Shown piece by piece: positions 8,001 through 14,000 of a DNA stretch of 64,000 bases. How positions within the stretch are numbered: the first letter of the stretch is position 1; each line of letters opens with the position of its first letter. The position numbers were made by a program, and so were the translations under genes. The notes beneath the pieces are model-generated. The model saw nothing but the letters and a program-made list of their open reading frames with translations, was not told the origin of the DNA and did no database searches. Origin of the DNA: Saccostrea echinata (lineage: Eukaryota); NCBI RefSeq assembly GCF_033153115.1, contig NW_026889774.1, positions 6,386,001-6,450,000 of the forward strand, in the 5' to 3' direction.

Positions 8001-11000
8001 AAACTAGCTAAACATAGTCCTTTTGACACTGCAAATAAACTGGAAATGGAACATACAAGCTCGCATCAGCAGAAGTGCAGTAAATAGGACGCTAAACAAG
8101 GAACAGATGCGATCACATCTGCCAATAAAACGACCACTATTGTCCCCAAGACATAAGGAAGCAAGATTGCTGTAGGCACGACAACATAGGAGGTTGAATG
8201 GTCGGTCGTGGCAAAGAGTGCATTGAAAGTCAGATGAAAGCCGATTCTTGCTACATCCGGTAGACAGCAGGGTTCGAGTTTGGAGACATCCAAATTCTGC
8301 ATAAAAATTACAACATGCATTGGAAACAAAGGCCTTTGGTGGAAGCAATGTAACAGTTTGGGGATGTTTCTCTTTGCGAAGTAAACTGGATCTGCAGATC
8401 TTTGATGGCACCTTGGCTGCACAAAACTACAGGGATAACATTCTAAGCCTATTTGTTGTGCCTCATTTTGATGATCATTTATTAGCAAGTGACCTGTACT
8501 AATGGGCCCGAAAAGTGAGGGACTATCTTCGCCAGGGAGCCATTTAAACTTTGTCCTAGCCCGCCATGTCTCCTGATTTGAACCCAATTGAGCACCTGTG
8601 GCATTATCTTGGTCGTAGAATGAATGAAAGGGCCCCAGGATGTGAAAACATACAAGAATTGAATGATGCTTTAATGGAGGAATGGTGACACTTCCCCCCT
8701 ACCCATCTAAGGAGACTTGTCAATAGAACTGTACAAAAGTCGTGGTGGATACACAAATAAATATGCTTATAAAATGTTGAATATTGATGACTCTTTAATT
8801 GTCAATAAAGTTTAATATACTTATTACTAGCAACTTTTTTCAATAACAAATTAGAGTGAAACTTTGAATTTAACAATTTTTGTCATGGATTCTGTTCAAT
8901 GGAAATTTATCAACTGCATAAACAAAATTACTTAACAGATAATTCCGACACTTGCATTGGCTACGGAGAGTTTAGATCTACTCAGATTGAATGATTTAAT
9001 GTCTAAAGAAATAACATAGAATAAGTGATAGTCCCTAACTTTTGAGTAAGTGTATAGAAAAGTAAAGCTTAGAGTTTTCTGAGGAATCACAGGATTATAA
9101 TCGGGAAAAAGCATTTGCAATTCTGAAACAAAGTGCTATTTTAAATCATCTATTTATATACCTCTAACTGCACTTCAGATTTGGATGGTTTTGCAATGGC
9201 TTCTATCAGGCTTTCTCTCTGATTCCTAGCAATTCTCAGGCAGCTGTTGTAAATTTCCTAATGGAGACAAAATAACTTAAGAAACATGATAACTTTTTTT
9301 CTTATTGATATTCTATTGCGTAGTATTTTATTTTGTAACTTTACTCGCCGATCTTTGGAATATACCTTCAATAATTCAAGAAGCATTTCAATTATTTTTT
9401 CTTCTTCAAAGTTTTCTAACTCTAAAGCTTCGAATACTTCAGTCCATTCATTGTCGTACAGTTCGCTGAACTTTTCTGCTAGTTTGTTGGGGCGATTTTC
9501 GTCAGATAAATCAGCTATACCAGGATTGTTTAACCTGAGCTTATCACCAGCAACAGCACTTAATCTACAAAACAATGAGAAAGAAAAACGAAAAAATTAA
9601 TGTAAGCATCAACAATAACAGAGCTCGAGCACACATTAACAAGGTTACACAGATGTTTGGTCTTAAGTTATGCATAATGCCGTTGTCAGTGTATACTTAC
9701 AAAAACTGTCATACTATTTCCAATTATTTAGCAAAAGTTATTTTTAAATTAATAATGAAATTTAAAATTGTTAATAAGATACTAATCTAATTGTGGCTTT
9801 GTCCCTTTAAACCAATCAACTTTGAGGTATTAAATTTTTGAGCATATGGTGTATATGAGTATGTAATAAAAGTGACCCATTCCTGAAAAATTGTCGAGAG
9901 AGCAAACTGACAGCAATTTGACATTTTGTGATTTTAAATTACCTTAATGTCTGTTATTTTGAATAAAAGTGGAAAATGGCTTTTGAGTCATGGCTTAAAT
10001 TAGGTGTATATTGCAGGAAATACAACAGAATATATTTTTCTTTGAAAAAACATGTTAACCTTGTAAGTGCTCTCTCCTTTTCCAGTCTTTCTTCTTCAAG
10101 ACTGAAATATAGATACAATGTATGAAGAGAACATTAAGAGTGCATGATTTGATTGATATACATGTACATGCATATGGTATTTCAAACACTTTGTATAGAT
10201 AACCTATTCTACCCAATTTTTTCATTTGATCTCTTTATTTCTTACAATAAAACGACACCGTAGGTTTGAGGAAAAGCAAAATAAGGTAAATAAGACCATC
10301 ACAAAACACTTTTAAACTAGTTACTAGAAGTCATGACGTGAAATCTAAAAATCAAGAAAGGATGGTGCACTCAGAAGCTCCCATGATATGTGTGTAAATC
10401 GCGAGAATCAAATGAATATATACGTTGTATTACCTTTTTGTTTCTTGTTAAAATATGAAAGTGTACCTTTTAAGTGCATTTTCTTTCTCTTGTCTTTCTT
10501 GTTTTAATCTAAAATGAAGATGACAGATATCAGAAGCACCGTAAAGAATGCGCAATTTTAGAAAAAGAAAATTGTGAACGTAGACAATTTTGTTTTTATT
10601 CATAAACTAATTTGATAGGCACTTGATGGAAACAAGACACATTCAAATGCATAACGTGCTGTTGAAATCAGTGTTATGGCTCTGTGAAGACAGAAAGCCC
10701 ATGTGCCTTGGCTGTCACAATAGTATCAAGTTTTCTGAAGCTATGACCAGTTTTGACAGATCACCTACAGTACGACTGAAACTCGACTCAAATGACATGA
10801 GTTTATATGTGATGAATGCAAATTCAATAATTGAAAAATCCTGGAATCTTGGACGCGGGAAAGTTAATCTTTACAAAATTGTACAGGCTAATTGATCACT
10901 AATATAAAGCAAACAGTTTGCCTACGAGATACCTATGAGTGAAATTAAAAAAATCAAAGGATTAATGTATATTTTATATGTAATAAATGACAAACTTTGT

Positions 11001-14000
11001 CCGATTCTGATTTATGCCATGAATTTAACAGCTGGGCATTATAATAATGCAAACAGTTTATCTGCAAATTTTTCGTGAGAAAAAAAAAAACTTTGAAAGG
11101 TATATTTTCAATATTATTATCGCAGTAGTCTACCCAGGACCTTGAACCCTGTAGCATGGGGACATGAATTTCAATATTTTGATAGCAGGCTAGCAACTTA
11201 TCATAATCATGCAACATGTGCAATGGAAACAGGGCTCCAATGAATAATAAAATTTTGGTAGAGAACTGCTTCCTAAACTTCGGTATTTCGTTGAAGCCAT
11301 TTCAGAAAAGAAATTTTAAGCAAATTTAGGAATACCAGTCGTAAAGCCATATCAACACGTCATAAGTGTGACTCAGGTGACTAAAAAAGCAATCCACATC
11401 ATTCACATGAGTTCTCAGCTCAGATGAGTTAGCATGCAAACGTTATTGCAAGTTATACCAATTCACCCCGCCCCCAAATTGGGGTGTACCTTTTTCTTCT
11501 AACTTTGTTTCATTTTTTCAACCTTTTATTCTTTCTTTTATAAAACATAGAAGATGGATATTATTTTCTTTCTATAAAGGTTTAAAGAGCATAAAAGAAT
11601 TGAGAGTACAGTTCAATCACATGCAATACATCAAAGTTTCATAGGATGGAGGATTTATGTATCGCAATAATAATAAATTGGATTGTATATATTACATGTA
11701 AGCACATTAATACTTCATAATAGCTGTGTTCTTGTGAGACTTTAAAATTGCAATAAAGATATACTTCAAAGTAGCTGTGCTCTTTTCTCTTCTTTCGTCC
11801 TCAAGGGCCTTTTCCACATTTTTCAAGTGAACTTCTTTTTCAGCAAATCTTATATATAAAATTGTATCTATGTATGGTTTATGTATTAACCTCCACTTGT
11901 ATTTTCATATTTTAATGCATTTTAAAATTCATGGTTACATATATAAATACTAAGCACGGGTAAGTGTATTTACTTGGTTTCCAGTCTTTTAACTTCGGTT
12001 TCTAGTCTTTTAACATCGATTTCGCTATCTGAGAGTCTGTAATAAAGAAACGTAGTTTAAACTCTGATTACATAGAAAATTATTTCCAAAATTTACAGTA
12101 TCATTCATTTTGTATTATGTTTGTGCGGACATAAACGGATGCAAGGAATGGAATTTAAAAAAAAAATGCATTCTGTCAAGTCTACGAATTTGAACATTGC
12201 TATTATTTGGAAATACATGTTTACTAGTGTTCGAGTTGAGGCACCACACAAAACTGACAATAATGTGAATCTTTTACACCAATATCACAATGAACAAAAT
12301 ATAAAACGTTGCTGTTTTGTTGTACCCTGTTATGGAAACAGGTTGCATTAGACACAAAATGCTTGTATAATTTATTTACCTGGCCTTTAGGCTGTGCCAT
12401 TCTTCTTTTAGCTCCTCTTCATCAAATTGCTGTAGGGGTCTGTATTTACTTAAAGTAATACAAGAATCTCTTGTTTGACTCTCAAGAAAACGTTATATCT
12501 TTTACTTAAAAATATCACACAGTCTTTTTATTCTTTTGTTAAAAAATATAGTTTGGAGGGTTTGTTACAACGCAAATGTATTAACGATGTAAAAAGTAAT
12601 AAAATGGGATTGCTATATTTTGCATCATTACATTTTGCATCAAGTTCAAAATAAAATATATAAACGCAAAATATATTAATACAAGATTATATAGCATTTT
12701 TCATCGTTATTACAGTTTGCATTATACATGTAACAGTGCATGGGTATCTTTTAATAATTTGAGATTCGGGGTCATGAAGTATAGAATCTAATATTGTTAT
12801 ACCTTTAAAATTTTGTTCCTATATAAATCTAAACTAAAAAAAAGTCTAACATTTCCAATGTTTTACTGAGCGGTCATAAATAAATCGATGTTTGACCGTG
12901 GAATGAGATATTGGACCTGTCGATGAGATATTGGACCACTTACATCACACAATGGGCGGGATCAGCTAAATCTCATTTGCATTCGTTGGCGTTCGACAGT
13001 GACGGGATTGACCGAGTTTTACCTCAGTGCTGGTAAAGGAAATTTACATCACGGAAGCCAGAACAAGATATATGTATGTTAAACAAAAAAGAATTAAAAG
13101 GTATAACATTTACTGACTGTGTTCTCGGGCAATGTGCGTTTTTTCGACGTACCCCTCGAACCAAACCGTTTGCCTTCGGCCTAACGGCCTCATGCAAACA
13201 GTTTGGTTCTTGGGTCCGACAAAACGCATGTTGCCCTCAATCCAAGTCAATAATTGTATATTGTAAAAATTTTATTCATGTAGTGAGGATACCAATATCA
13301 CAATTAAATTATTGTATATTCAATTTTTTGAGAATATCTGTTAAGTAATTGCAAAGAATCAATAGAGGCTTTCACTCCTTCTTCAAGTGGATATACACAG
13401 TGTAAATATTGAGTTTTGGATACCTCGATTTAGTGATAATAATACTTTGATATCATTATTCCTAAGATACTGAAGTAATACATACGATAGAAATACTTTT
13501 GAAAGATTAAACAGCCAGGCGTGCAAAACAAGCACCCATGAAGACAGATGTTAATTTTACAATAAAACAATTAAGCTGATGTGAAATTTATACTTACATT
13601 TACACAAAAAAAATCAATTTCACAGTATGACATTTTTGAAGCATAATGATTGCAGATACAAATTGCACAAAAATGTGCGTTCTGTCAGGTTCTGAGTTCA
13701 GACAGGCAGATAGAATTGTTAAATACAAATATACTAATAAAATCTGGTTATTTAGAGTTATTATCAAAGCAATACCTAACCATGCTTGAAAATACCTTCG
13801 TGTTGTTTCCACTTGATGTCTACTACAAATGTGTAAATGTATGTTCTTGAAACATCCGTAAACAGGCATGTATAGTCCTTTACAGAAGCGATTGCAAAAA
13901 ATCCTTCCAAAGGTCCAAAACATCGCATTGAATAGGCATTTTGCGCACAAGATTGGATATCTAAGAAACATAGTAATTGAATTTAACAAGGTTATTTTTT

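Follow-up and report, generated by a model that had tools for sequence, protein, structure and literature searches.

A MIEAP-domain gene of the oyster Saccostrea echinata with a predicted coiled-coil stalk divided among whole-heptad exons

The locus and its genes

The window analysed here, that is, the whole stretch of 64,000 nucleotides (nt) from contig NW_026889774.1 of Saccostrea echinata (positions 6,386,001 to 6,450,000), is AT-rich animal DNA with a guanine-cytosine (GC) fraction of about 0.29-0.37, and the subject of this work is a gene on its minus strand, called the stalk gene in the following, whose product carries a long predicted stalk in front of a MIEAP domain. On the minus strand, the exon 9370-9566 matches a segment of a 395-residue S. 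echinata protein with 100% identity, the RefSeq protein for the gene being XP_061184511.1, and the sole Pfam match of the latter is MIEAP (PF16026), covering residues 204-392 and profile positions 1-193 of 195 with 76.9 bits against a cut-off of 27. By its sequence, the stalk gene is a MIEAP-domain gene of S. echinata. Its parts, in the direction of transcription, are as follows:

15258..15467, minus strand: 210-nt exon, the first long one of the coding sequence, in phase 2-2 provided that the start codon is divided (RNA piece 15258-15465; deduced from the RefSeq start)
13796..13960, minus strand: cysteine-rich (Cys-rich) hydrophobic exon, 165 nt, reduced to 27 nt by an alternative acceptor at 13822 (both forms in RNA run X1)
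12380..12448, minus strand: 69-nt exon, 23 residues, not a heptad multiple; the predicted coil begins inside it at about residue 90 (joint 12448/13796, dimer model)
11974..12036, minus strand: stalk exon of 63 nt encoding residues 104-124 (3 heptads); a 21-nt duplication lies within it, and one contig skips it
11765..11848, minus strand: stalk exon of 84 nt encoding residues 125-152 (4 heptads), which one contig skips
10467..10508, minus strand: 42-nt stalk exon, 2 heptads, residues 153-166, a clear duplicate of the exon that follows (sequence comparison; no skip listed)
10060..10101, minus strand: last of the six exons before the head, 42 nt for residues 167-180 (2 heptads) of the stalk; exon 1 of the short paralogs ends in a homologous stretch (no skip among the listed joints)
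9366..9564, minus strand: first head exon, 199 nt, phase 2-0, with the end of the coil and the start of the MIEAP domain (sequence, RNA joints, Pfam)
5012..9257, minus strand: remaining MIEAP head exons, 9257-9162, 5458-5372 and 5278-5012 (stop) (sequence, RNA joints, Pfam)

Upstream of the stalk gene, on the same strand, lie three shorter MIEAP paralogs, and the phase-2 intron before the head has the same position in all of them (3/3):

25736..27538, minus strand: short paralog 2, with a coil of about 38 residues in one exon, a phase-2 intron and a MIEAP head
31406..32818, minus strand: short paralog 3, layout as in short paralog 2
36738..38098, minus strand: short paralog 4, layout as in short paralog 2

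The family is large: a search with another S. echinata paralog as query returned 1,809 relatives at an expect value (E) <= 0.001, and, according to PMC8382680, the bivalve Mieap family (orthogroup OG24) has a mean of 53.1 genes per bivalve against 0.6 in other molluscs, the corresponding means for an Hsp70 family being 68.1 and 4.4. The database models P0001 and P0023 apparently fuse neighbouring MIEAP paralogs, and gene counts taken from such models need care. A nidovirus of Crassostrea gigas, with a genome of 64 kilobases, is reported to encode a MIEAP homolog (PMC11848433), a hint that the family may take part in the interplay of host and virus.

Exon structure of the stalk gene

The six consecutive minus-strand exons that precede the head have AG/GT ends, phase 2 on entry and exit, and lengths of 165, 69, 63, 84, 42 and 42 nt, all of them multiples of three; with the first in its 27-nt form, and joined by coordinates, they give XP_061184511.1 from residue 3 to its end. 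Seven introns of the gene are in phase 2, and an eighth, which would split the start codon between AT and G, follows from the RefSeq start. The position of the exon upstream of it is uncertain; a candidate donor lies at 18293, and the comparison with the contigs of run X1 reached position 18000, short of that candidate first exon. The 210-nt exon (15258..15467) encodes an acidic N-terminus, a CCFC motif and a predicted amphipathic helix at residues 39-67.

An earlier, sequence-only reading of this DNA had described six consecutive exons of phase 2-2 with lengths divisible by three, which is confirmed, and had given the second of them as 60 nt, which has to be corrected to 69 nt (23 residues). 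The acceptor of the 60-nt form is present in the DNA and was rejected, given that 12448 is the position used in the RefSeq protein as well as in the RNA joint. The same reading had taken four of the exons as exact multiples of 21 nt (63, 84, 42 and 42 nt), which holds, and all six as the building material of a coiled coil, which holds for the last five. The exon of 165 nt, with 6 Cys in 54 residues and 24% E/K/R/Q/L, is, judging from this composition, not a coiled coil; its phase 1-1 open frame was rejected as well, since it is the phase-2 frame that matches an S. cucullata protein, and it is homologous to an optional exon of that species (E 2.6e-6). The coil thus consists of five exons, four of them whole heptads, an arrangement with a chance probability of p 0.002 if the exons are independent and of 0.003-0.02 if only 3 or 2 units are.

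A predicted parallel dimer in unbroken register

AlphaFold2 predicts a single helix for residues 90-192, with a predicted local distance difference test (pLDDT) of 86-95 in blocks over residues 101-180. Two copies of residues 88-395 are modelled as an in-register parallel dimer, with a score of 0.51 against 0.00 for the best of 3 controls, a contact agreement of at least 89% between runs and a pLDDT of at least 79. The mark applied to homodimers is reached by 21/30 solved microbial homodimers and 0/23 monomers, and, among eukaryotic proteins, by 17/29 homodimers (7/16 of those from animals) and 0/30 monomers.

In the model, self-contacts occur at residues 104, 111, 118, 125, 132, 139, 146, 153 and 160, with a 7-residue period that is unbroken over residues 90-184, and the exon starts 104, 125, 153, 167 and 181 all fall on heptad position a. 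A second interface lies at residues 255-309. The stalk is, therefore, predicted to be a parallel dimeric coiled coil with uninterrupted register.

Transcripts that omit stalk exons

Run X1, the only public run found, is presumed to be RNA (labelled "RNA?") and was used as contigs, with 15 of its 17 spliced joints listed. Those with CT..AC ends include 9564/10060, 10101/10467, 11848/11974, 12036/12380, 12448/13796 and 13822/15258; the joint 10508/11765 is absent among the 15 of 17. Two joints, each in one contig, omit a stalk exon: 10508/11974 skips the 84-nt exon and 11848/12380 the 63-nt exon, the shorter flanks of the two joints being 27 and 69 letters, respectively. Both forms of the 165-nt exon are present in the run, the long one as the piece 13796-13960 and the 27-nt one through joint 13822/15258. 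No skip of the 42- or 69-nt exons is found among the listed joints, which does not imply constitutive use, given that contigs drop rare forms.

Spliced transcripts hence drop the 63- or the 84-nt exon, which would shorten the rod without breaking it: at a rise of 0.1485 nm per residue, the predicted stalk would measure about 14.1 nm when full and 11.0 or 9.9 nm after the skips. The proposal that each exon can be skipped in frame with the register kept is accordingly borne out for the 63- and 84-nt exons, by their joints and by the position of their starts in the dimer model; for the 42-nt exons no skip is listed.

Duplication history of the stalk exons

In the sequence-only reading, the stalk had grown by tandem exon duplication. 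For this, 78 pairs of 42-nt units were compared against codon shuffles, a null that ignores the heptad periodicity and makes the p values optimistic. The two 42-nt exons are identical at 29/42 positions (p 2e-4), and the final 42 nt of exon 1 of all three short paralogs agree with them at 24-29/42. Compared with the last 42-nt exon, the 3' half of the 84-nt exon has 25/42 identities (p 9e-4); compared with the other 42-nt exon, it has 19/42 (p 0.046). Neither value withstands correction for 78 pairs, which also leaves the 69-nt exon without a similar partner among the units. The three-way similarity claimed earlier is in this way retained for the 42-nt pair and the exon 1 ends, and is uneven for the 84-nt exon.

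The internal 21-nt repeat of the 63-nt exon, already seen in the earlier reading, is a tandem repeat with 19/21 identical letters, a level reached by 0/20,000 codon shuffles; the orthologs of this exon are 14 residues long, and therefore it has grown by one heptad. In sum, sequence similarity supports exon duplication for the two 42-nt exons and gives it weak support for the 84-nt exon, in its 3' half; in the 63-nt exon the duplication is an internal one of 21 nt, and for the 69- and 165-nt exons no support emerged. Seven introns were also searched for decayed exon copies, with six matches at p <= 0.05 among 35 tests and 0 significant ones after correction, the following being one possible, weak case:

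11484..11556, minus strand: possible decayed copy of a 42-nt stalk exon in an intron, with the same donor context and a stop in the phase-2 frame (p about 0.01 uncorrected of 35 tests, not significant when corrected)

The stalk has also expanded independently in C. virginica (P0014, P0018, P0065), by 21-residue tandem units ending in the motif of the 42-nt exons.

Stalk length in relatives

Exon borders in relatives were deduced from proteins, and most of their isoforms are RefSeq predictions. Measured from the first residue of the 63-nt exon up to the head, the stalk has 49 residues in three O. edulis genes, 77 in the stalk gene and 84 in S. cucullata, all multiples of 7. Across the three oysters, then, the register of the stalk is kept and its length is not. 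Given this difference in length with the register kept, a fixed ruler is disfavoured and a tolerated, modular change of length is favoured. Stalks in the MIEAP family range roughly from 35 to 110 residues by a crude walk-back.

Isoforms vary as well. RefSeq isoforms of O. edulis omit the 14-residue homolog of the 63-nt exon, and the in-coil differences between isoforms of relatives amount to 14, 18, 21, 21, 4, 10, 32 and 3 residues. With the stalk gene included, whole heptads make up 5/10 of the in-coil differences against 0/9 of those outside the coil (Fisher p 0.02). Coiled coils are known to tolerate shifts of 3 or 4 modulo 7 as stammers and stutters, and all in-coil differences (10/10) are 0, 3 or 4 modulo 7, against 3/9 outside, a post hoc comparison with (3/7)^10 ~2e-4. 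These counts cover isoform differences other than N-terminal start differences and the 70- and 90-residue cases of a distant paramyosin-like subfamily, 90 being 6 modulo 7.

N-terminal segments

The most repeated isoform event of the family concerns a hydrophobic or Cys-rich exon before the coil, and not the coil. Such an N-terminal segment varies between isoforms in S. cucullata, two O. edulis genes, C. virginica, M. angulata/gigas, one further transcript pair and the stalk gene (relatives P0003-5, P0008/11/57, P0061-63, P0064-66, P0090-99 and P0265/P0015). Beside the predicted amphipathic helix, the 165-nt Cys-rich exon is likely, from its sequence, a second membrane-binding segment; the membrane anchor is what we infer from these segments. 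Variation of the Cys-rich exon may, in addition, switch membrane attachment.

Why does the stalk vary in length?

The best reading of these observations is a modular, tolerated change of length in a likely membrane-tethered dimer, in which regulated tuning is possible. This oyster MIEAP gene probably encodes a protein that forms the predicted parallel dimer, with a stalk split among phase-2 whole-heptad exons, and its transcripts drop either of two of them, taking the stalk from about 14 nm to 10-11 nm with the register kept. In the ancestral gene, a phase-2 intron would have lain at the boundary of a heptad, immediately preceding the head, as retained in the three short paralogs; the stalk would then have lengthened by duplication of the 42-nt unit and by 21-nt slippage inside exons, and selection would have retained changes that leave the dimer intact, not any one length. 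The protein would likely act as a membrane-tethered spacer, its amphipathic and Cys-rich segments holding the membrane and its stalk lifting the dimeric head, and splicing would vary both anchor and reach.

Several points weigh against this. A single presumed-RNA run in the form of contigs cannot give isoform levels or tissue control. The homodimer mark is reached by only 1/7 eukaryotic dimers without an older solved relative, and the pass of the dimer may reflect likeness to solved coiled coils; moreover, in the two 42-nt exons, which have weak d positions, a simple hydrophobicity score favours another register. Neither N-terminal segment attains typical transmembrane hydrophobicity (best 19-residue mean 1.2-1.3). 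In relatives alone, whole heptads account for 3/8 in-coil differences (p 0.09), the others being of 18, 4, 10, 32 and 3 residues. Finally, four letter differences (11800, 11802, 11818 and 12414) stand at the same depth as the 63-nt skip joint; on account of this shared depth, they appear to lie on the contig with that skip, and the probable origin of the skip is a divergent allele or else an unseen near-copy. No letter difference is listed at the depth of the 84-nt skip joint. The four differences make three residue changes in 153 nt, every affected codon changing its residue, and such differences on the apparent skip contig hint, as a separate observation, at fast divergence or an unseen copy.

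The sequence-only reading had gone further and seen in the stalk a tunable molecular ruler. Spelled out as an alternative to the reading above, regulated splicing would set the head at about 14, 11 or 10 nm and the distance would decide what the head reaches. Two in-register skips in one run, the optional homologous exon of O. edulis and the enrichment of whole-heptad changes inside the coil speak for it, as does an anchor-stalk-head layout like that of known rulers such as ROCK2 (PMC5082667), of which the dimer model supports the parallel coil, the anchor being a deduction from sequence. However, the spacers and rulers of that source keep their length as their sequence diverges and lose their function when truncated, while here the orthologs measure 49, 77 and 84 residues within a family of about 35-110, whole heptads are a minority of the in-coil differences of relatives (3/8), and one of the two skips is apparently allele-linked. 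The claim of a ruler is, for these reasons, not shown, and we consider it unlikely. Alternatively, the variation could be noise of splicing combined with polymorphism: in a gene that evolves fast, weak splice sites would let short symmetric exons drop out, the products would survive by staying in frame, and the 63-nt skip would be a genomic or allele-specific loss. The 84-nt exon has indeed a weak acceptor (9/17 pyrimidines, A at -3) and a weak donor, the 63-nt skip is accompanied by the four letter differences with their three amino-acid changes, and 5/8 in-coil differences of relatives are not whole heptads. Nonetheless, the fixed differences between orthologs are whole heptads, exon starts fall on position a, and the modulo-7 pattern separates the in-coil differences (10/10) from those outside (3/9), albeit post hoc, so that we hold noise to be quite unlikely as the explanation. 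A third possibility is a role like that of vertebrate Mieap, in which the coil would scaffold cardiolipin-handling condensates of mitochondria and the length of the coil would be incidental. PF16026 is shared, and, according to PMC10845071, the coiled coil of human Mieap is needed for multi-phase condensates and its C-terminal half for mitochondrial concentration. However, the same source gives human Mieap four disordered regions around two coils, whereas the oyster model is ordered from residue 90 on, and the family has expanded to about 53 genes per bivalve (PMC8382680). We hold this role to be very improbable as the account of the stalk.

Relation to known systems

Rods built from repeat-sized exons, several of them varied by splicing, are familiar from the CD23 stalk (21-residue exons), tropomyosin exons, the coil inserts of CLIP-170 and NuMA, and the cassettes of collagen XIII. 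These proteins are unrelated to the stalk gene, which, unlike them, uses phase-2 introns and a 42-nt unit. Exon-phased coiled coils are a known design, of which the stalk gene is an example in an undescribed setting. In the dystrophin rod, for instance, exon borders are in phase with the heptad pattern and in-frame loss can keep the fold (PMC3748829), although that rod consists of three-helix spectrin repeats with disease deletions, and the oyster stalk of a two-stranded coil with natural skipping.

With its closest systems, the bivalve Mieap family and vertebrate Mieap/SPATA18, the stalk gene has in common the MIEAP domain, a coil before it and tandem paralogs. It differs from vertebrate Mieap in that its coil is single, continuous and modular and follows an amphipathic, Cys-rich N-terminus, where the vertebrate protein has two coils interspersed with disordered regions. 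No description of exon phasing or skipping of the stalk in the MIEAP family was found in the accessible literature. The interest of the gene lies in the alignment of exon borders, heptad register, evolutionary length change and splicing in a single gene, from a family of about 53 genes per bivalve without a known mechanism. Besides, with a stalk of three natural lengths and an anchor of two forms, this one gene provides a ready series on which to examine the importance of stalk length.

The MIEAP head and the GrpE question

What could such a stalk carry? GrpE is the top fold match of the predicted MIEAP head (models P0007 and P0002), below the thresholds of the tools. The nucleotide-exchange factor of DnaK and mitochondrial Hsp70 is GrpE/GrpEL1 (PF01025), and the organization of a GrpE-type homodimer (coil plus helical bundle) is found in the dimer model, with interfaces at 90-184 and 255-309 (score 0.51 vs 0.00). 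Service to an Hsp70-type ATPase is, from the shape of these models, the likeliest role of the head, though one that we hold to be less probable than not. Bolder, and in our view rather unlikely, is the idea that bivalve MIEAP proteins would be GrpE-shaped exchange factors or adaptors for the co-expanded, atypical Hsp70 proteins of the HSPA12 type, with splicing choosing anchor and stalk length to place Hsp70 at set distances from the membrane. If it were true, human Mieap and the orphan HSPA12 branch would gain a testable biochemical job, and a GrpE-like Hsp70 partner in the MIEAP head would directly explain the joint expansion of Mieap and Hsp70 in bivalves (PMC8382680).

The likeness to GrpE is sub-threshold and without sequence support, a point against such a role of the head. 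PF01025 is absent at E <= 0.1 from the Pfam scan of XP_061184511.1, hhalign gives the MIEAP head against GrpE a probability of 0.1-0.2, and the score of the MIEAP head profile against E. coli GrpE is matched or beaten by 258/1000 shuffles. Fusions to Hsp70 number 0 in the 55 long MIEAP proteins of the 150 listed (Pfam E <= 1e-5), Hsp70-like matches 0 among the 19 open reading frames of the window covered by a non-exhaustive scan, and no relevant link of Mieap or SPATA18 to GrpE was found in the accessible literature.

Other structural neighbours exist. The predicted heads of the plant GIL1/IRKI C-terminal domain (PF24994) and of fungal and ciliate proteins align with a template modelling (TM) score of 0.61-0.70 over residues 181-395 and of 0.72-0.82 over 318-395, a likeness between models on both sides, with scores under the Atlas bar for naming a family, from which no function follows. 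One bacterial cluster is also a predicted structural neighbour of the head. Among viral models there was no match at E <= 0.001, and a search by the features of the beta-head, excluding the MIEAP and GIL1 clusters, gave no usable match.

Other features of the window

In a long intron, at about 7900-8700 (plus strand), broken frames resemble what we take to be a remnant of a Tc1/mariner transposase, with no Pfam match at E 0.01. Two copies of a repeat at about 6580-6750 and 14575-14740 have a very high contig depth in run X1 and are probably a short interspersed element. Upstream of the stalk gene, at about 18620-21300, two matching repeat arrays, 18721-18780 and 21199-21263, are inverted relative to each other, which points to a foldback element, and satellite-like arrays with units of 165 and 168 base pairs occupy 28218-28820 and 39611-40887. 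A separate gene at about 49600-52376 (plus strand) has a weak match to DUF7043 (E 9e-5, below the cut-off) and a likely transmembrane segment.

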